Positions 1,205 to 62,572 of a stretch of 64,000 nt of DNA are shown piece by piece (the first letter of the stretch is position 1; each line of letters begins with the position of its first letter). The DNA is from Candidatus Thorarchaeota archaeon (GTDB lineage: Archaea > Asgardarchaeota > Thorarchaeia > Thorarchaeales > Thorarchaeaceae). Below the pieces are notes generated by a model that was not told where the DNA came from, did not search any database, and saw nothing but the letters and a program-made list of their open reading frames with translations. The position numbers and the translations under genes were made by a program. The stretch covers positions 173,629-237,628 of the forward strand of contig JAWOEX010000035.1 of assembly GCA_046482545.1 (NCBI GenBank). The letters run 5' to 3'.

Positions 1205-2038
1205 TCATTTAACCATTTCGACCAAGCGCTCCCGCAAGAAGCGGACAGTGCCCAAATAGGTACCCTGTGCGCTGTAAACTTCTGACTTCGGCAAATTGGC
1301 ACACCCATTATCGAAGAACGGCCCTCTGAACGTGGATTCTGGGCTATCAACTGGAATGCCTGATATGAGCTTATTGAAACTTGGCAACGTAACAAGAAAG
1401 CCTTTTGTCCTACTTTCGTCCATAGATAAATCCCCCTTCTTTTCCACACAGTTTCTGTCCAATTGAGAACGGAGGATAACGGGTATTGATCTCCCTCGCC
1501 TCCTGATAGTCCTATACAGGGTTCGCGAAGAAACAGCTCTAAAGTTACTCAGTGTTGGATGGTTATGCCCCACAAGTATCCAATCTGCACTCAGTACTTC
1601 GGGTGATGGCCATGCATGCCCGTGAATCAGTCCCACCGAGAACCCCCCCTCTTCTATCTTTTCTCCTCTGATTCCACATAGCGAAACATCTCTAGGTAAC
1701 AGAGATTCTAAATCTCCGTCATGATTCCCCGGCACAATAGTGACCTTGGTTCTCTCAGCTAACGACTCCATAAACTGGGGAATTCTTTGCCAATTAAACG
1801 AAACGTCAGGTCCCAAAGAATGCTTGATATCTCCAAGAAAATACAGGTTCCCTATGTCATGTTGATTGATTAGAGCATGTATCTCACTCAACATTACTTC
1901 ATCTTGCGATGGAAATTGCGCTCCAGTTGACTGGGCTAGATTAATGTGCCATCCAAGGTGAAGATCCGCGATAACAAGAATTCTTTCATTTCCTTCTAGA
2001 ATCACGGCTTTCCCGTCAATTATACGTTTCATCATCAC
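1205..2038 (-). CDS. Metallophosphoesterase, ICC-like (Lhr-associated MPE type)
   Basis: ADLHLG, LGDIKH, PGNHDG, IHGH and GHNHP motifs. Confidence 0.85.
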   Translation of the reverse strand: MMMKRIIDGKAVILEGNERILVIADLHLGWHINLAQSTGAQFPSQDEVMLSEIHALINQHDIGNLYFLGDIKHSLGPDVSFNWQRIPQFMESLAERTKVTIVPGNHDGDLESLLPRDVSLCGIRGEKIEEGGFSVGLIHGHAWPSPEVLSADWILVGHNHPTLSNFRAVSSRTLYRTIRRRGRSIPVILRSQLDRNCVEKKGDLSMDESRTKGFLVTLPSFNKLISGIPVDSPESTFRGPFFDNGCANLPKSEVYSAQGTYLGTVRFLRERLVEMVK

Positions 2039-2084: not shown

Positions 2085-2480
2085 ATGAGACACATGCCAC
2101 TCAGTACCTATGAAACAAAACGCCTTTCTCAGAAAGTGCTGGAACAACATGATATTGAGTACTTTAAACGGAAATATGGGAAGCGATTCATCAGAGCTCT
2201 GAGAGCCGTTGAAGAAGAACGCGTTCATAAATACATATTCAACGAGGGGGAAGCAGTTCGATGGATTGTTGAAGGCAGCAAAAGAGATTACCTCATATTT
2301 CCTAGGACGTTTTGTACCTGCACAGACTTCTATCAAGCAGTTGTACTAGATGGTACTGTTGACATGTGCTACCATCTATTGGCACAGAGAATTTCAGAGC
2401 TGCGTGGTGAATACTTGACTATAACCGGTAATGAATCTCAACGAAGGCGCTTCAGCAAAATATGGAGAAGATCTGGTTGA
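2085..2480 (+). CDS. SWIM zinc-finger protein
   Basis: FCTCTDF...CYHLLA (CxC...CxH). Confidence 0.75.
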   Translation: MRHMPLSTYETKRLSQKVLEQHDIEYFKRKYGKRFIRALRAVEEERVHKYIFNEGEAVRWIVEGSKRDYLIFPRTFCTCTDFYQAVVLDGTVDMCYHLLAQRISELRGEYLTITGNESQRRRFSKIWRRSG

Positions 2481-2601: not shown

Positions 2602-3711
2602 ATGTCATATTTTAGAACTGATTCGCGGATAATCCTAGCATTGGTAGCTGTGCTACTTCTATCGACAGCACTCCATATTCCGGTAGAAGCTCAGACGGAA
2701 AACCTTGATCCTGTTGTCGTTATGTATGATGAGAGTCATTCGCAGCAGTTCTCTGCTGATGACGAGGAGGATGGAATCAAGCTAATGCTCGATATGGTAA
2801 ACGACTCGAGCAGGTATCTTGTGAAGACCAACAGTGAAAACCCCCTCAATTTGACCACGCTTAGTGATGTAGATATCTTAATACTTGCCGATCCTGATGC
2901 TTCTGCTCCTTTTGAGAAGGAGGAGATTGCTGGAATATCTGATATGCTCTCTAATGGCAGCTCTCTTCTTACTCTAGGAGATCCCAAAATTGACCAAAAT
3001 TCTACCTACTGGAAGGAAACTGCCTTCAGAGATATAGGTGAGAATGATGCATTGAACAGACTCTTTTCTTCTATCAATATGACCGGGGTGAGATTCAGTG
3101 TTAACGAAACCACATCCGGTGTGATACGGGCAGATTCTCTTTTTGATTATGAGCATGCATTGAATGAAACATCTCCCCAACTAATAGAGCTGGATGCTAC
3201 AACTTGGAATTCAGACCATCCTATTTTCAATGATATAAACCGCTTGGTTACAATGACTGCGACACTCAAACCAATTGATGCGCCAAGTGCTATAGCTACT
3301 GGTTATGAAACGTCATTTGCACAGTATCGCAGGGGTCCGAACACATTTGGTAACACCTCATTTCCAAATATGACTCTCTCCGAATTTGAGGAGAAGCCGT
3401 TCTCCTATTCCGCAATAAACGGAACATTCCCGCCATGGTTATCCGCCTTTGAATTCAATAGCAGTAGAGTTGTAATCGGTGGATCGACGATAATGTTCTC
3501 TGGACGAGTACTTGATTTGCATGAGAGTGACGACAGGTCAAGCGAACAATGGTTTTACCAAGCAGATAATTCTCGACTCTTCATGAACATGCTAAACTGG
3601 CTATCGGAGGATTTTGTTACTGCTCCTGAAGCAATATACCCTCTCCTAGTAATCTCTTCAGTCATATTGCTGGTTGGGGTGGCGTTCTACGTTTTCAAGA
3701 AGCTTCGGTAA
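2602..3711 (+). CDS. Type I membrane glycoprotein with GIFT (GldG/IFT52/WBP1-like) domain
   Basis: Signal peptide; YDESH; SRVVIGGSTIMFS...DNSRLFMNMLNWL; C-terminal TM followed by KKLR; 11 N-x-S/T sequons. Confidence 0.55.
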   Translation: MSYFRTDSRIILALVAVLLLSTALHIPVEAQTENLDPVVVMYDESHSQQFSADDEEDGIKLMLDMVNDSSRYLVKTNSENPLNLTTLSDVDILILADPDASAPFEKEEIAGISDMLSNGSSLLTLGDPKIDQNSTYWKETAFRDIGENDALNRLFSSINMTGVRFSVNETTSGVIRADSLFDYEHALNETSPQLIELDATTWNSDHPIFNDINRLVTMTATLKPIDAPSAIATGYETSFAQYRRGPNTFGNTSFPNMTLSEFEEKPFSYSAINGTFPPWLSAFEFNSSRVVIGGSTIMFSGRVLDLHESDDRSSEQWFYQADNSRLFMNMLNWLSEDFVTAPEAIYPLLVISSVILLVGVAFYVFKKLR

Positions 3712-4319: not shown

Positions 4320-7178
4320 CTACCAAAACTGGCGTGTTCTTGCGTACTGCCTTTCAGCCTTTGCGATTTCTCGCAGTAATGATATTCTATCCATTGTACT
4401 AGGCCTCAAAATTCTTGCCGCAGTAGTTGGGCCAATCCCTCGTCCCGCTAGAGTAAGCAGAGCTTTTCTTCCATAATTGGCAACCAGAGTTGCAGCCAGA
4501 TTTGCCTTCTCTAGGATTCTTTCGTCTTCACTTGTTAACTCTTGCCCACGGTGAGCTTTCTCCAAAGCCTTCTCCAATCGACTAGAAGATGATCTTCCAA
4601 TTGCAATCATCTTCGACTCACAGGTCGGGCATCTGATTGTTGATTCGAGTGTTGAGATTGTTCTTATTGTATGCCATGTGCAATTAGTACAAACTAGCTT
4701 CACTTTCTTGGATTCCAGACGGTGCTGCATCACATTCAAGATTTCTCGCTCTTCTGTAACCTCTCCAATGACTTCAAACCGCGTACGCGTTTCAACAATG
4801 AGATTGGCAAGACTAGATGGCTTCTCTCTCTCAAGGCACATAACCTCTATGAATCCATCCTGAACCTGTTCGAATATCCTTACTGTCCTTTTCTCATCCA
4901 GCTTGTCCTGCAAGACTTCTGCAACCGCGGCGGCAAAGACTGGTGTACTTTCCATGCTCTCCATAAGGCGATTTACAGGCAGGGAAGTAATCTGCACATC
5001 GCGGCGAATAACCCCCATTCTTCTCGCAACATGGATGAATCTTGATTCAAGCGTTCGAGTCTTCTTGAGTGCCATCTCTAGAATAGCAGACACTTGCTCA
5101 GGCGTGTACTCTTTAAATACATCTGTAACTAACTCTCCATCGATTTTTTCATCTGCTGTCAGTAACACTCGATATGGATCACTTTCGGCTGCTATATCTC
5201 CGCCAACTCTTGTACCAAGTAATGCGGAAAGAAGTATCGCAAGCGCATCATTTGTTTTGGTCCCGAATGGAGCGTGAAGGACAAGCCCTCCTGGAAAGCT
5301 CTCGACGATGAGCCGTTTTGTTTCAGGGAGTTGACCCAGCTCATTCTTCGCCTGTTCTATTTCCTTGATTACATACTCTACTGCCCTATCTTCAAGCCCA
5401 TAGGACGATTTAAGCCAGTTACGAGCATCCCTCTCCTCTCTACTTACTATATCATTCATGACGCTTGATACTTCAGATGCTACCTCATATGGTACCGGAA
5501 TATTCTCACCAATCCAATGTGGGGCCTCAAATTGGCGGCCTCCAGCTGGTGCACAGATGATTTCTTCGTCTTCGACACTTATTATCTCCCAAGGCTTACC
5601 ACGAATGACAAAAACATGACCCGGCTCAAGGCTGCTAACGTAGTTTTCATCCAATACTCCCACTGGTGCTCTTGTTGCTGCATCAACGACCACAGACTGC
5701 TGAACATCAGGTATTGTTGAGAGGTGGGTATAATAGAACGTGAGCACTTTCCACCCACGAGATACTGAAGTATCATTCAAGCTGATGTAGCCCTTATTCT
5801 CCATGAAACGGAGCAGCTCTAGAAGTTGCTTCCTTTCCACGCTTTTGAATGCATAGGAACGCCTGACGAATTTCAATAAATCTTGGACTGAAACCTCTTC
5901 TCTATCGAGCAATATTCCACATATCTGATGACACAATACATCCCACGCATGGCTTGGAGTCTTTGCTTCTTCAACTCTGTTGAGTTTGGCCCGCCGAAAG
6001 ATAACACCAGCTTCCAAAACGTCATCGATATTCACTGTAGCAATGATTATGCCTTTCGCAATCCCTTCAAGAGTGTGCCCGGATCTTCCTATTCTCTGTA
6101 AGCCTCTGGACACCTGCCGGGGACTAGAATACTGCACTACTAAATCTGCTTCTCCTATATCAATGCCTAATTCCAAACTGGAAGTTGCAATGATACCCTT
6201 GGAAGCACCCTCTTTCAGCCTCTGTTCTGCTTCTATTCTGGCCTCTTTAGATAGAGACCCATGATGTACATCAAATTCAAAGTTCGGTTCAAGGACTCTC
6301 ATCTTCGAGCCAAGAACTTCTGTGAACGATCTTGTATTAGTAAAAACGAGCGTCGACTTGTGGTTATCAATTAGGTCAATTATTCGCCGAAGGCGTGCCA
6401 TCGAGTGTGGTGGGTAGTATATCTTTCTTCCAAGCTCATGATCCTTAGACGTTGGAGTGGGCATTTCAACATTCAAATTCATTCTTCTGGCCCTATATCC
6501 CGCCCAAACTATTGTTGCCTTACTGACCTCTGTCTCAAGCAGACCAGCAACTTCTTTGGGATTTCCCACTGTGGCGGATAAACCGATTCGCTGTACATTA
6601 GAATTGGTAATCGAATCTAGTCTCCCAAGCCCCAAGCTCAGCTGAACCCCCCGCTTTGTACCTGCAAGTTCATGAACTTCATCAATAACAACGGCAAAAA
6701 CCGTTTGCAGGTGATATCTAAGACGTCTCCCGGGTAGGATTGCCTGCAGTGTTTCAGGTGTAGTTATTAACAGATTGGGTGGCTTGATTGCTTGTTTTCT
6801 TCTTTGGTATTGGGTAGTATCACCGTGTCGTACATCGACAGTAATTCCAAGCTTCTCGCATAATTCTTCGATTCGGCGAAACACATCTCTATTTAACGCT
6901 CGAAGGGGCGTAATGTAGAGAACATAGAAACCAAACAATTCTTTGTCTAGACTTCTTTCATACAGTATATTCAACAACGGCAAGAGCGCAGCCTCAGTCT
7001 TACCACTACCTGTTGGTGACAACAAGAGAGCATTCTTCCCGCTCAATATCGTTGGTATGGCATCTTCCTGAATTGGTGTAGGTTCCTCTATGCCCTGTTC
7101 CTGCAACAGTTGAGTGAGCTCTCCCGATAGAGAGTCGAAGGCATTCATGGAGAAGGCTTCCGTGTTTTCAAACCTCAC
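4320..7178 (-). CDS. lhr: Lhr-like SF2 helicase
   Basis: PTGSGKT, TPLRALNRD, DEVH, SAT, HHGSLS, LELGIDIG, QRIGRSGH; C-terminal Zn ribbon and HhH. Confidence 0.9.
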   Translation of the reverse strand: MRFENTEAFSMNAFDSLSGELTQLLQEQGIEEPTPIQEDAIPTILSGKNALLLSPTGSGKTEAALLPLLNILYERSLDKELFGFYVLYITPLRALNRDVFRRIEELCEKLGITVDVRHGDTTQYQRRKQAIKPPNLLITTPETLQAILPGRRLRYHLQTVFAVVIDEVHELAGTKRGVQLSLGLGRLDSITNSNVQRIGLSATVGNPKEVAGLLETEVSKATIVWAGYRARRMNLNVEMPTPTSKDHELGRKIYYPPHSMARLRRIIDLIDNHKSTLVFTNTRSFTEVLGSKMRVLEPNFEFDVHHGSLSKEARIEAEQRLKEGASKGIIATSSLELGIDIGEADLVVQYSSPRQVSRGLQRIGRSGHTLEGIAKGIIIATVNIDDVLEAGVIFRRAKLNRVEEAKTPSHAWDVLCHQICGILLDREEVSVQDLLKFVRRSYAFKSVERKQLLELLRFMENKGYISLNDTSVSRGWKVLTFYYTHLSTIPDVQQSVVVDAATRAPVGVLDENYVSSLEPGHVFVIRGKPWEIISVEDEEIICAPAGGRQFEAPHWIGENIPVPYEVASEVSSVMNDIVSREERDARNWLKSSYGLEDRAVEYVIKEIEQAKNELGQLPETKRLIVESFPGGLVLHAPFGTKTNDALAILLSALLGTRVGGDIAAESDPYRVLLTADEKIDGELVTDVFKEYTPEQVSAILEMALKKTRTLESRFIHVARRMGVIRRDVQITSLPVNRLMESMESTPVFAAAVAEVLQDKLDEKRTVRIFEQVQDGFIEVMCLEREKPSSLANLIVETRTRFEVIGEVTEEREILNVMQHRLESKKVKLVCTNCTWHTIRTISTLESTIRCPTCESKMIAIGRSSSSRLEKALEKAHRGQELTSEDERILEKANLAATLVANYGRKALLTLAGRGIGPTTAARILRPSTMDRISLLREIAKAERQYARTRQFW

Positions 7179-7366
7179 AGTTTATTTATTAGAATGCGTA
7201 TATCAGTTGAAAACGTTAGGTCTGCCATTTCCTTGTTAGCAATAAGAAACCCAATGGCTTCAGATACTGAATCTGCCTCTTGAATTGTCTTCTCTACCAG
7301 ATGTCTCATCTCGCTCAGATGTGAGATATACGATGCAGCCAACTCAAAATATTCTTTATCCGACAA
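7175..7366 (-). CDS. Small hypothetical protein
   Basis: 63-aa ORF whose stop overlaps the lhr GTG start (GTGA). Confidence 0.5.
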   Translation of the reverse strand: MSDKEYFELAASYISHLSEMRHLVEKTIQEADSVSEAIGFLIANKEMADLTFSTDIRILINKL

Positions 7367-7385: not shown

Positions 7386-7487
7386 CTACTCTTCCTGCTC
7401 CTCTCCGTAGACAGAATAGGCTAGAATGATCAGCAATGCAGCTATGGCCATTGCATTTAGCACGATTCCTATCAATTCAGTTTGCAT
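7386..7487 (-). CDS. 33-aa single-TM microprotein, OST4-like
   Basis: Hand translation MQTELIGIVLNAMAIAALLIILAYSVYGEEQEE; GAGGT upstream; N...Y spacing matches OST4. Confidence 0.55.
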   Translation of the reverse strand: MQTELIGIVLNAMAIAALLIILAYSVYGEEQEE

Positions 7488-7573
7488 AATACTCAAGTTA
7501 CCTCGCTAAAATTCTACTTATAATCGTTCCTCAAGTCCATCCATAAAAAAGAAATGGCCATTACTATGTTCAT

Positions 7574-7795
7574 TTATTCATAGTACTGGTCGATGAACTC
7601 TCCATAGATATCTACTGCTTCAGTCAGTGGGTTCACTTCATCAATTATCATCTTTAAACCGCAGGAGCCACACTTGACACTTGCTATCTCCTCCTCCCTA
7701 AACACATCAATCTTGATGGCGGTCTTTCCGCATGAAGGACAGGGATAGACGGAGGGAAGTCTTCTGCGTGACCGACTACTGGATCTTCTACCCAT
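7574..7795 (-). CDS. elf1: Transcription elongation factor Elf1
   Basis: MGRR basic N-terminus, CPSC...CGSC, EAVDIYGEFID. Confidence 0.9.
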   Translation of the reverse strand: MGRRSSSRSRRRLPSVYPCPSCGKTAIKIDVFREEEIASVKCGSCGLKMIIDEVNPLTEAVDIYGEFIDQYYE

Positions 7796-7958: not shown

Positions 7959-8195
7959 TTGATGACTGATTTATCTCCGAACGAAAAATGTGTGCTGCAG
8001 ATTCTTGAGCATGAGGGTCCACTAACTACTGCAGATCTCATCAAGGCATCTCGTTCCAGTGAGTACTCTCATTTATGTACTGGTTGTGCAGGCGGAGACG
8101 CAATCCTCTCAGCAGCCCAGAGTCTTCTTCATAGTGGTTCTATCTCACGAGAACTTGGGAAGGACGGCTATTGCTGGCATTTGAAGGTTGAATGA
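7959..8195 (+). CDS. Small winged-HTH protein with CxxC
   Basis: LSPNEKCVLQILEHEGPLTTADL wHTH start; CTGC; ATGA overlap with sufS. Confidence 0.55.
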   Translation: MMTDLSPNEKCVLQILEHEGPLTTADLIKASRSSEYSHLCTGCAGGDAILSAAQSLLHSGSISRELGKDGYCWHLKVE

Positions 8196-22978: not shown

Positions 22979-23404
22979 TTGTTGAAGCCTTGGTGGCCTA
23001 AGATTATTGTCAAACCGAGATTGAGACTTGGAAGGCCGCGATTTGGGATGCCCAGTCGACCGCCCGACATCGTAATCTTCGGTGTAGTTTTCCTTGGCCT
23101 TCTCTTCATTCTTGGTGGGAATATCTACACACTTGTAAAAAACCCTCCCGCCATCGCTGGTGGTCAAGATAATCAGCCTATCTTGGTTGCACCGGGCACT
23201 AATCAGCAGCTAGGTATGGAAGGAATCGTAGCATCTTTCGTCATATTCATGGGCACTGTGGGATTGGGACTCATCTACTATGCATCGAAGTATGTATTCA
23301 ATCCCGGATACGCAACCCGATTACTTGTACTTGGAAGTATTCTTGCTGGCCTCGCATTCCTAATATTCGCCTATCTATATGGTGTTAAAACGGGTCAATT
23401 TTAA
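22979..23404 (+). CDS. Oligosaccharyltransferase subunit OSTC/DC2 (OST3/OST6 family) homolog
   Basis: KPRLRL...GGNIYTLVKNPP...QLGMEGIVASF; 3 TMs; matches the OSTC pattern GGIIYDVIVEPP...QYIMEGLASSF. Confidence 0.75.
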   Translation: MLKPWWPKIIVKPRLRLGRPRFGMPSRPPDIVIFGVVFLGLLFILGGNIYTLVKNPPAIAGGQDNQPILVAPGTNQQLGMEGIVASFVIFMGTVGLGLIYYASKYVFNPGYATRLLVLGSILAGLAFLIFAYLYGVKTGQF

Positions 23405-26996: not shown

Positions 26997-29774
26997 ATGT
27001 CACGATTTAGTAGATTCAAACGGTCTGCTGAGAGATTCTTTGGGAAAGCTTTCCATAAGCCTAGGGCAGAAATTAACCGTGGCTCAGTTATGTTGATTGC
27101 TTCTTTGGCCCTCATTTTCTTTGCTGCACTAGGAGTACGTTTGGCGCCTCTCATTGATGCTCAGCCTTTGGTTCGCGCTTTCGATCCTTGGTTCCAACTT
27201 CGGGTGACTGAATATATTACCGATCAGGGATTTGGAGCTTTCTTCAGCTGGTATGATGAATCAACATGGGTTCCATACGGTCGTAACATGACTGAGACAA
27301 GCTACATCGGTGTTCCATTTACTAGTGCTTTCTTCTATATGCTGATGAATAACTTGGGACTTAGTATCAGTATCAAATATGTTTCACTGATTATGCCTGC
27401 TTTTATGGGCGCGCTCACTACAATTGTCGCCTTTTTCCTTGGAAAAGAAATTTCGAATAATACCGTTGGTCTACTTAGTTCATTATTCATGGCTTTCATG
27501 CCCGCATTTATTCAGAGAACTGTTGCAGGTTTCTATGACAACGAATGTATTGGTGTATTTGCTATTGTCTTAGGTCTCTATTTCTTTACTAGGTCTATTA
27601 GGAGAGACTCTCTATCTTCAGGTGTACTCGCTGGTCTTTCTTTGGCCTATTTACGAGCATCTTGGGGGGCAGGAGATTTTCTATTAGTCCTATTTGCCTT
27701 GTATGCCTTTACAATGCTGCTCTTTGGAAGGTATAGTAAAAGGCTCCTTTCCTCCTATGTAATCACCATCTCTTTGGGGCTTTTTGTGAGTGGTCTTGTA
27801 CCTAGAATTGGATTTGGTAACCTCACTTCCTTTTCTCTCCTTGTTCCCATTGGTGTAGCATTTCTACTTGTTGGATACGAAATATGGCTAAGAATTGGGG
27901 CCTATCGGAGAGCAACAGCTGAGCTTCTTGCCCCTCACATGCGTTCGATTGGGTTGGGTCTGCTCACTTCAGTTGTCGCTGTAGCAAGCTACTTCATCTA
28001 CGCAGGGGAGAGAGCTCTAACAATTACTCCATACAACACGAACCCTGTCATTAGACTCGGTGGCAAATTCATTACAGCCATTAATCCCTTCTATCGTTTA
28101 GATGAACGGATTTTCGCGTCCGTTGCTGAACATCTTCCTAGCCCCTGGAGTAGTTTCTATCAGACCCTTTCTGTCCTAATTTTCTTCTTTCCATTGGGAA
28201 TGTATTTTGCTTTCAAAAGAGGGAAAGACGAGGATTGGCTTATCCTCCTGTATGGGCTTGCTTCAGTGTATTTTGCAGGAAGTATGATTCGCCTTTCACT
28301 GATCCTTGCGCCGGGTGTTGCGGTACTTTCTGCAATTGCAATCAACAGAGTACTTTCTCCCTTCGCTAGAATCGTAACTGAAAAGACAGTTTTCGAGAGA
28401 CGCCGGTTTAGGATGAGCAAGTCGCTCACATCTGAACATGCTCTCGCCGCTTATGCATTTGTTGGGCTTCTCCTCGGTGTCAATTTGATTCTCGGTGTGC
28501 AATATGCGACTAACCAAATCCAAAATCCTGAGTTTGCGCGTTCGCCATTGTCTGAGGAAAATCAACAGACCGACTGGCAAACTGCGATGACATACGTGAG
28601 GAATGTACTACCAGATGATGCAATTGTTGCAAGCTGGTGGGACTATGGCTATTGGTTGAATGGAGCAGGAGGCACGCAGACCATCGTTGATAATGCGACA
28701 TGGAACAGCACACAAATTGCAAAAATGGGATATGCATTGATGGCACTTAATCTGACAGAGTCACTACGCACATTCAAAGCTTGGAATGCCTCCCATGTAG
28801 TGGTTAACTGGGGTCACGGTATTCAGGGTTTAGGTGGAGATGAAGGAAAGTGGCCATGGATGGTCAGGATTGCTGAAGACAAGCTTGGCACCGCCGTCAT
28901 AGATGATGAGACCTATCTGGGTGATGATCCTTCAACCCCAGATACTGAAGAAAGCGAAGCTACGCTTGAGCCATTCTATTCTTCAACACTATTCAAGCTG
29001 CTTAGCTACGGCGAACCCGCGTCTGCTCAAGCTGCTCAGCAACAAGCTCAGCAAGGGACCTTGCCCCAAGGACGTGCGAGCATCGATGCAAGCGATGGAT
29101 CCTACGCCAATGATGAAAAGTGGACTTCTCATATGCCAGTGAATCTGCATGGTGCATTCAAACCTCCGTATTACAGTTCACCATATGGTATTGTCAAGAT
29201 ATACGAGATCGACTATACGATGTACTACCAGTGGCTCAACCGTAGCAATGCTGACTGGGTGCTAGACAAGAATACGCTCTCTGGAGTATCCATGGATGGG
29301 AGTCTTTCTGGTGCTGAAGAGGGCTTTAGCAAGTTCGATATTGTATTCGGTGGTGGATACAATGCATCAGTGTATTCCGCTGCAAATTCAACCCATGTGT
29401 ACTATGGCATCAAAATGAACAACTATACAAATACGGAGGACGCAATCGGGTTCCAAATTGCTCCGGTTGATAATCCTGGAGAGGCTGATATCCGGGTAGC
29501 AAACTTCAGTGGTCAAGAATACTATGATGGAAATGTAGGCTATAATGGAGAATGGGCAGAAGACTCCAGCGGTAGTAACTCAACCGAACTCGCTGGTGGA
29601 GCCAATTTCACCGAGTTCCTACTCCCATTGGATAGCGGAGACTCACAGGATACAATCATGTCTCCTGGAATGAACTACCAAATCCGTTTCATGTTCTGGA
29701 ACAACATCCGGAGCGGCGAACCAACATTTACTTCCGATTGGAAGAGCTTCTGGGTTCCAATTGAACTCTACTAG
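26997..29774 (+). CDS. aglB: Oligosaccharyltransferase STT3/AglB with extra C-terminal beta-rich domain
   Basis: FDPWF, FYDNE, SVAEH, SWWDYG, DNATWN, DEGKWPWMVRI. Confidence 0.95.
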   Translation: MSRFSRFKRSAERFFGKAFHKPRAEINRGSVMLIASLALIFFAALGVRLAPLIDAQPLVRAFDPWFQLRVTEYITDQGFGAFFSWYDESTWVPYGRNMTETSYIGVPFTSAFFYMLMNNLGLSISIKYVSLIMPAFMGALTTIVAFFLGKEISNNTVGLLSSLFMAFMPAFIQRTVAGFYDNECIGVFAIVLGLYFFTRSIRRDSLSSGVLAGLSLAYLRASWGAGDFLLVLFALYAFTMLLFGRYSKRLLSSYVITISLGLFVSGLVPRIGFGNLTSFSLLVPIGVAFLLVGYEIWLRIGAYRRATAELLAPHMRSIGLGLLTSVVAVASYFIYAGERALTITPYNTNPVIRLGGKFITAINPFYRLDERIFASVAEHLPSPWSSFYQTLSVLIFFFPLGMYFAFKRGKDEDWLILLYGLASVYFAGSMIRLSLILAPGVAVLSAIAINRVLSPFARIVTEKTVFERRRFRMSKSLTSEHALAAYAFVGLLLGVNLILGVQYATNQIQNPEFARSPLSEENQQTDWQTAMTYVRNVLPDDAIVASWWDYGYWLNGAGGTQTIVDNATWNSTQIAKMGYALMALNLTESLRTFKAWNASHVVVNWGHGIQGLGGDEGKWPWMVRIAEDKLGTAVIDDETYLGDDPSTPDTEESEATLEPFYSSTLFKLLSYGEPASAQAAQQQAQQGTLPQGRASIDASDGSYANDEKWTSHMPVNLHGAFKPPYYSSPYGIVKIYEIDYTMYYQWLNRSNADWVLDKNTLSGVSMDGSLSGAEEGFSKFDIVFGGGYNASVYSAANSTHVYYGIKMNNYTNTEDAIGFQIAPVDNPGEADIRVANFSGQEYYDGNVGYNGEWAEDSSGSNSTELAGGANFTEFLLPLDSGDSQDTIMSPGMNYQIRFMFWNNIRSGEPTFTSDWKSFWVPIELY

Positions 29775-62209: not shown

Positions 62210-62572
62210 ATGGACCCCCTTAGCTCAGTCTTTCACGTTCTCTTTGGCAGATGGAAGGACGACCCAAAAGACTTGAATTATTACATCAAAATCTTCTTTG
62301 CCTGTATTAGTGCGGTAGTCTGCGGTATTGCTGGACCTGCTTTTGCAGGAACGAGAGGGATTGTTTTCGGCCTACTGATTTACATCATCAGCCTATATGT
62401 ACTGGTCTACATCATGGACATGGATCCAGAAGCACTTGGCAGTTACCAGAAACTGGTGACAGATTCCCTGCCCAGTTACCTATTATTATGGGTACTTCTG
62501 TGGACTCTCATCTATGCCTTCACATTGCCATCGTCAGTAGTTGAAAATTTGGCTTTCGCTCTTAGTATGTGA
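62210..62572 (+). CDS. EMC6/OPTI (Rab5ip)-like 3-TM membrane protein
   Basis: YYIKIFFACISAVVCG...MDPEALGSYQKLVTDSLPSYLLLWVLLWTLIY. Confidence 0.65.
   Translation: MDPLSSVFHVLFGRWKDDPKDLNYYIKIFFACISAVVCGIAGPAFAGTRGIVFGLLIYIISLYVLVYIMDMDPEALGSYQKLVTDSLPSYLLLWVLLWTLIYAFTLPSSVVENLAFALSM

Follow-up and report, generated by a model that had tools for sequence, protein, structure and literature searches.

A Thorarchaeota microprotein of a pan-Asgard family resembling eukaryotic OST4, with predicted docking at the Ost4 site of STT3

A 33-residue single-helix protein encoded in the Thorarchaeota genome GCA_046482545.1 (3.05 Mb, 99% complete) is probably a genuine homologue of Ost4 with a stabilising role on STT3; the probability of this reading is put at roughly 0.75. 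The gene occupies positions 7386–7487 on the minus strand of the window, that is, of the whole 64,000-nucleotide stretch of DNA that was analysed. Read from 7487 to 7386, it encodes the 33-aa peptide quoted in an earlier note on this DNA, followed by TAG; the note named no strand, and the translation bears out its ORF on the minus strand, the plus strand of the same interval carrying stops. According to translation, profiles and modelling, the product has a single transmembrane (TM) helix, an invariant Tyr24 and an acidic C-terminal tail. The AF2 model of the monomer is one hydrophobic helix at residues 2–32 (pLDDT 90), in agreement with the OST4-like size and single TM proposed earlier. The OST4 reading itself, also put forward in that note, is supported by the conservation of the family, by in-register profile alignment and by modelled docking at the Ost4 site.

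Range of the family and its relation to OST4

Iterated profile searches, combined with reading of the loci, showed short single-helix ORFs like the microprotein in 25 Asgard families out of 30, the weakest of which have E 1e-4 to 1e-2 per genome and lack synteny; families f29 and f30 were examined less closely. Among the genomes searched, the iterated profile found no member in families f4, f11 and f20. The raw profile tally, some chance matches included, is 228 of 300 Asgard genomes at E 0.05. Named lineages with a member comprise Helarchaeota, Freyarchaeota, Njordarchaeota, the Loki genus Harpocratesius and a closed genome labelled Heimdallarchaeota. Within the family of the source genome, a profile search finds the gene in 75 of 76 genomes, nearly always in a single copy. 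The ORF is thus kept in its relatives, which answers the earlier suggestion to look for it across Asgard genomes. When the Thorarchaeota profile was run against 1.84 billion representatives, only family members and one repeat artefact came back. The homologue search yielded 28 proteins, most of them without names and none named as non-Asgard or eukaryotic; the ESM Atlas gave matches only under 0.85 and was uninformative.

The f9 copies in L096, L107, L111 and L112, apparently Loki-type, are all located tail-to-tail with a YchF GTPase gene. Several of them have open frames of 50–74 aa, in which the conserved helix is preceded by another hydrophobic segment; this segment may be an extension resembling a signal peptide or an artefact of the start call.

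The references for eukaryotic OST4 and yeast Ost4p were PF10215, PDB entries 1RKL and 2LAT and the OST complexes 6EZN, 6C26, 6S7O and 6S7T. The OST4 profile comprised 18 sequences, all from databases, and is animal-heavy (Neff 2.7); separate OST4 seed sequences served only as search queries, that of yeast Ost4 having been checked in the PDB. Comparison of the pan-Asgard profile with this profile is suggestive of homology above the TM-helix background. The hhalign result is 86% with E 5.6e-6 over 25 ungapped columns (L14 G15 I/V16 ... Y25 H26), which is short of the usual 95% level. Thorarchaeota sequences on their own give 35%, intermediate sets 40–50% and broad sets 81% and 86%, the last two figures being raised because the later alignments are enriched in His members; members without His still reach 46%, and the His and non-His groups constitute one family (98%). 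All sets align without gaps and in one register, which places Tyr24 on OST4 Tyr25. The score was reached in 0 of 150 and 0 of 200 column shuffles, the reversed profile gave 2%, and the controls, actual TM windows from STT3 and a neighbouring protein, stayed at or below 12%.

Profile A4, in which the Tyr was never followed by His, brought in the first members with a Tyr-His pair, from families f12 and f14. The f12 copies read I-A-Y-H and are syntenic, being located in the same SWIM-like/phosphoesterase cluster; the f14 copies read L-A-Y-H-F. Later rounds added Tyr-His members in f5, f17, f23 and f26 and weaker matches in f10, f25 and f27. As a background, among the long ORFs of the source genome, a Tyr at the end of a TM helix has His next to it in just 1.6%. 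The Tyr is invariant, the equivalent of Gly15 is present in 27 of 30 Thorarchaeota copies and the His is absent in Thorarchaeota; the window copy has Ala for OST4 Gly15 and Ser for His26. As far as the alignments go, G-x9-Y(H) is a better OST4 signature than the N-x12-Y spacing proposed earlier, the Asn of which occurs in 11 of 30 Thorarchaeota copies and is absent from yeast Ost4. The breadth of the family and the Tyr-His bridge move common descent with OST4 from unproven to probable. The most OST4-like member (L187:1498–1626 (+), genome G111) has G-x9-Y-H, a basic tail and an independent weak match to the Pfam Ost4 model.

The Pfam Ost4 model (PF10215, cut-off 25 bits) matches neither the window protein, which the profile check suggested in the earlier note therefore leaves unrecognised, nor any of 29 Thorarchaeota copies. 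Across 301 Asgard genomes, nothing exceeds its cut-off, and the best family member has E 0.0073. The weak Pfam Ost4 matches in the source genome and these 301 are mostly junk frames or pieces of larger membrane proteins, and no rival Asgard Ost4 family surfaced in the same search. On the OST4 HMM, the window protein scores 0.8 bits and ranks 109th of 752 small hydrophobic ORFs of its own genome. Among the members of the broad alignments, Ost4 is the most frequent Pfam match (5 of 31 and 6 of 36; others 1–2), below cut-off. OST4 was not among the PDB entries returned by sequence searches with the protein or with four family profiles, and Foldseek with the 33-aa helix gave no match and was uninformative.

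The family resembles OST4/Ost4p in size (33–45 aa), in its one TM helix and, for part of its members, in the G-x9-Y(H) register. Unlike OST4/Ost4p, it falls below the Pfam cut-off, and its column table shows no conservation of the N-terminal M-I-x-D-x-Q-L start, Asn12 or Phe19. The tails also differ: the C-tail is acidic in nearly all Asgard copies and basic only in f23, whereas eukaryotic OST4 tails are basic, with KKxx in vertebrates (PMC3687696). The charged tail, taken earlier as a parallel to OST4, is accordingly a point of difference. These dissimilarities, the lack of any curated threshold reached and the ease with which short Leu/Ile-rich helices converge would suit a peptide of independent origin that binds STT3 in the Ost4 groove and is merely analogous to eukaryotic OST4 rather than ancestral to it. 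Such an origin is unlikely in view of the equal length, the ungapped register, the G-x9-Y-H found in several lineages and the spread over most Asgard families.

Predicted docking on STT3

The predicted partner, STT3/AglB, is encoded at 26997–29774 on the plus strand (PF02516, E 5e-54; WWDYG at 547). A 141-aa protein of the OST3/OST6 family (DC2/OSTC-like), the presumed third member of subcomplex II, is encoded at 22979–23404, also on the plus strand (PF04756, E 1e-8). Both homologues noticed earlier are indeed present in the window, but at distances of 19.5 kb (STT3) and 15.5 kb (OSTC-like), with no shared operon. The microprotein gene never adjoins that of STT3; the distance is 15 to >100 kb in other genomes.

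In a complex model with the window STT3 (residues 20–680), the peptide scored 0.77 and the best of three controls, which are not stated as membrane helices, 0.00. Of 80 solved complexes, 58 attain the mark used, as do 2 of 110 mismatched pairs. Contact agreement between runs was at least 95%, with a partner pLDDT of at least 76. The predicted interface on STT3 comprises residues 28–54, 154–167, 450–461 and 486–505, which by our count are TM1, TM3, the last part of TM12 and TM13. The peptide is antiparallel to STT3 TM1 in the model, which implies an N-out/C-in orientation. Yeast Ost4 is described as ‘nestled between TMH1 and TMH13’ of Stt3, with residues 18–24 being critical (PMC7226087); the N-out/C-in topology of yeast Ost4p has been validated (PMC3687696). 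Ost4 residues 18–24 map to peptide residues 17–23, mostly within the predicted interface. The modelled peptide would thus be like OST4/Ost4p in its topology, in its site between STT3 TM1 and TM13 and in its contact stretch, which corresponds to 18–24. The complex-model check proposed in the earlier note consequently came out in favour of docking: the peptide is predicted to occupy the Ost4 site of STT3 with its N-terminus outside. Solved OST structures exist, so the docking pass may reflect memory of them.

The acidic cytosolic tail contravenes the positive-inside rule. Three arginines, R468, R470 and R472, are conserved among Asgard STT3s in the cytosolic TM12–TM13 loop beneath the groove, and the tail may pair with them; a contact between the tail and the arginine loop is absent from the confident contacts of the complex model.

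That the peptide might instead serve as an accessory helix in other membrane machinery, for instance the SecY/Sec61 translocon, is suggested by a Pfam SecD_SecF_C match of the window protein (E 0.024), by scattered Sec61_beta matches at E 0.05 and by the names given to its relatives. The exact protein is absent from a 15-billion-protein collection, and in that sense it is unannotated, as had been stated; however, near-identical 33–34 aa orthologues have been gene-called in other records, where they are misnamed ‘preprotein translocase subunit SecF’ (the JGI name). A role in the translocon is quite improbable: the Sec matches are below cut-off and not common to the family, and the STT3 complex model passes. 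Moreover, no SecD/SecF was found in the 99% complete source genome with PF02355 at E 1, a search that detects it in 12 of 14 control genomes. Membership of SecD/SecF itself (PF02355, about 6 TM) was rejected for the window protein, with its 33 aa and 14.5 bits against a cut-off of 20.5.

The source genome also encodes ribophorin I. A two-helix ORF at L207:1417–1677 (+), on contig C10 of the same genome (G000), matches Ost5/TMEM258 weakly, below cut-off (E 0.009), and is a candidate further OST subunit. At window positions 2602–3711 (+), a 369-aa type I membrane protein is encoded that has a signal peptide, a GldG/IFT52-like domain and a C-terminal helix. Its best Foldseek match is 6s7t_G (human OST-B chain G, which we take to be OST48), with E 9e-10 and TM 0.49, level with the IFT52 N-domain. 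Pfam OST48_N does not match this protein and gives a weak match at another locus, C9:345160. In f1, f2, f12 and f15, 1–8 kb separate the counterpart of the 2602–3711 gene from that of the microprotein. An EMC6 homologue is encoded at 62210–62572 (+) (PF07019, E 6e-7, over cut-off).

Gene, promoter and neighbourhood

The ORF at 7386–7487 is a real conserved gene. In Thorarchaeota, its upstream neighbour is elf1 (7574–7795, minus strand; PF05129, E 8e-17), behind which it starts at a distance of 86 nt. Downstream of it are a small helical ORF (7175–7366, minus strand), a conserved neighbour, and then the Lhr helicase gene. The small helical ORF overlaps the Lhr start and comprises 63 aa from TTG here, compared with 76–83 aa in relatives; one orthologue has a weak match to PF27357 (MJ1579). 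On the plus strand, a 78-aa winged-helix-like ORF with a CxxC motif (7959–8195) overlaps the start of a cysteine desulfurase gene.

An orthologue of 33–41 aa is present behind elf1 in all 30 loci of the same family. These Thorarchaeota orthologues start with Met-Gln and end with Y-x-x-[YW]-G and an acidic tail. They are under purifying selection, with a mean pS of 0.79 and pN of 0.31, and 0.55 versus 0.07 in an example of close pairs; variability by codon position is 0.64 at the third and 0.39 and 0.22 at the other two.

A TATA box, TTATAAG, is located at 7517–7523 on the minus strand (−36 to −30 from the ATG). TTATAA occurs at −35 to −38 in 30 of 30 Thorarchaeota loci, and column conservation indicates a BRE-like purine-rich element upstream of the box (−45 to −40). 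The GA at −7/−6 (7493–7494, minus strand; G in 29 and A in 29 of 30 loci) is the probable transcription start; the spacing from TATA to GA fits archaeal promoters. Together, these elements point to a dedicated promoter and a leader of 6–7 nt, so the mRNA would be nearly leaderless. The GAGGT noticed earlier does exist (7504–7500, minus strand), but it is located 12 nt ahead of the ATG, and GAGG/GGAG is found in just 14 of 30 loci. Because of this distance, its partial conservation and its position probably upstream of the transcription start, its role as a Shine-Dalgarno sequence is doubtful. In a salt-lake metatranscriptome, one contig spans 7274–7843; it is discounted as evidence of expression since the contigs may be DNA and the ORF is uncovered in three other runs.

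In about ten Asgard families, the microprotein gene directly follows a SWIM-like Zn-finger gene, an orthologue of window 2085–2480, and these SWIM-linked copies often precede an ORF of about 80 aa and Lhr or RPA. This shared neighbourhood supports orthology. In the window, the SWIM-like gene (2085–2480, plus strand) is divergent from a metallophosphoesterase gene (1205–2038, minus strand). Travelling with these genes in many families could also suggest a membrane anchor or regulator of the neighbours, namely the SWIM-like Zn finger, the small helical protein, Lhr helicase, RPA or YchF. That role is very unlikely, as the microprotein has its own promoter and the peptide persists where the neighbours are entirely different, being YchF in Loki-type genomes, HerA/S3ae in f22 and IF2 in Njord. 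A spurious, non-coding ORF, for which only the small size speaks, has next to no probability, being already refuted by conservation: purifying selection, an invariant start and stop context, presence throughout the same-family genomes with one exception and a dedicated TATA box.

An Ost4-like subunit in Asgard archaea

The window protein would represent Thorarchaeota in a pan-Asgard family that is homologous to eukaryotic OST4. The peptide is predicted to insert as one helix, with the N-terminus outside and the acidic tail in the cytoplasm, and to fill the STT3 groove that TM1, TM3 and TM13 form together with the end of TM12. By analogy with yeast and human, the helix would brace the catalytic STT3 and help to hold the OSTC/OST3-like subunit, and the result would be an archaeal STT3–Ost4–OSTC subcomplex II.

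Archaeal OSTs are textbook single-subunit enzymes. The catalytic enzyme belongs to the same STT3 family as archaeal AglB and bacterial PglB, which work as single subunits without accessory ones (Table 1 of PMC7226087). Unlike for AglB/PglB, the source genome encodes an Ost4-like protein, an OSTC-like protein, ribophorin I and a weak candidate for Ost5.

The idea of an Asgard Ost4 is already known from a single sentence in Eme et al. 2023 (PMC10307638), and the present analysis supports rather than opens it. The portion of that paper drawn on here reports Ost4 homologues ‘in most Asgard archaeal classes’; Ost4 sequences or methods were not found in this portion of its text. The range stated there, compared by description only, fits the spread of the microprotein family. 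New here are the family-wide range, the bridging Tyr-His lineages, the recognition of a gene family overlooked or misnamed ‘SecF’ in annotation and, as a prediction, a residue-level model of STT3 binding.

It is possible, as a more tentative proposal, that OST4 descends directly from this archaeal family and that the family dates back to the last Asgard common ancestor. The STT3–Ost4–OSTC subcomplex II would then be pre-eukaryotic; the acidic tail may form a lock with the STT3 arginine loop in archaea, and eukaryotes would later have replaced this tail by a basic ER-retrieval one. If the Ost4 reading is true, Asgard archaea would assemble a eukaryote-type catalytic subcomplex, STT3–Ost4–OSTC, and the smallest OST subunit would be older than eukaryotes.
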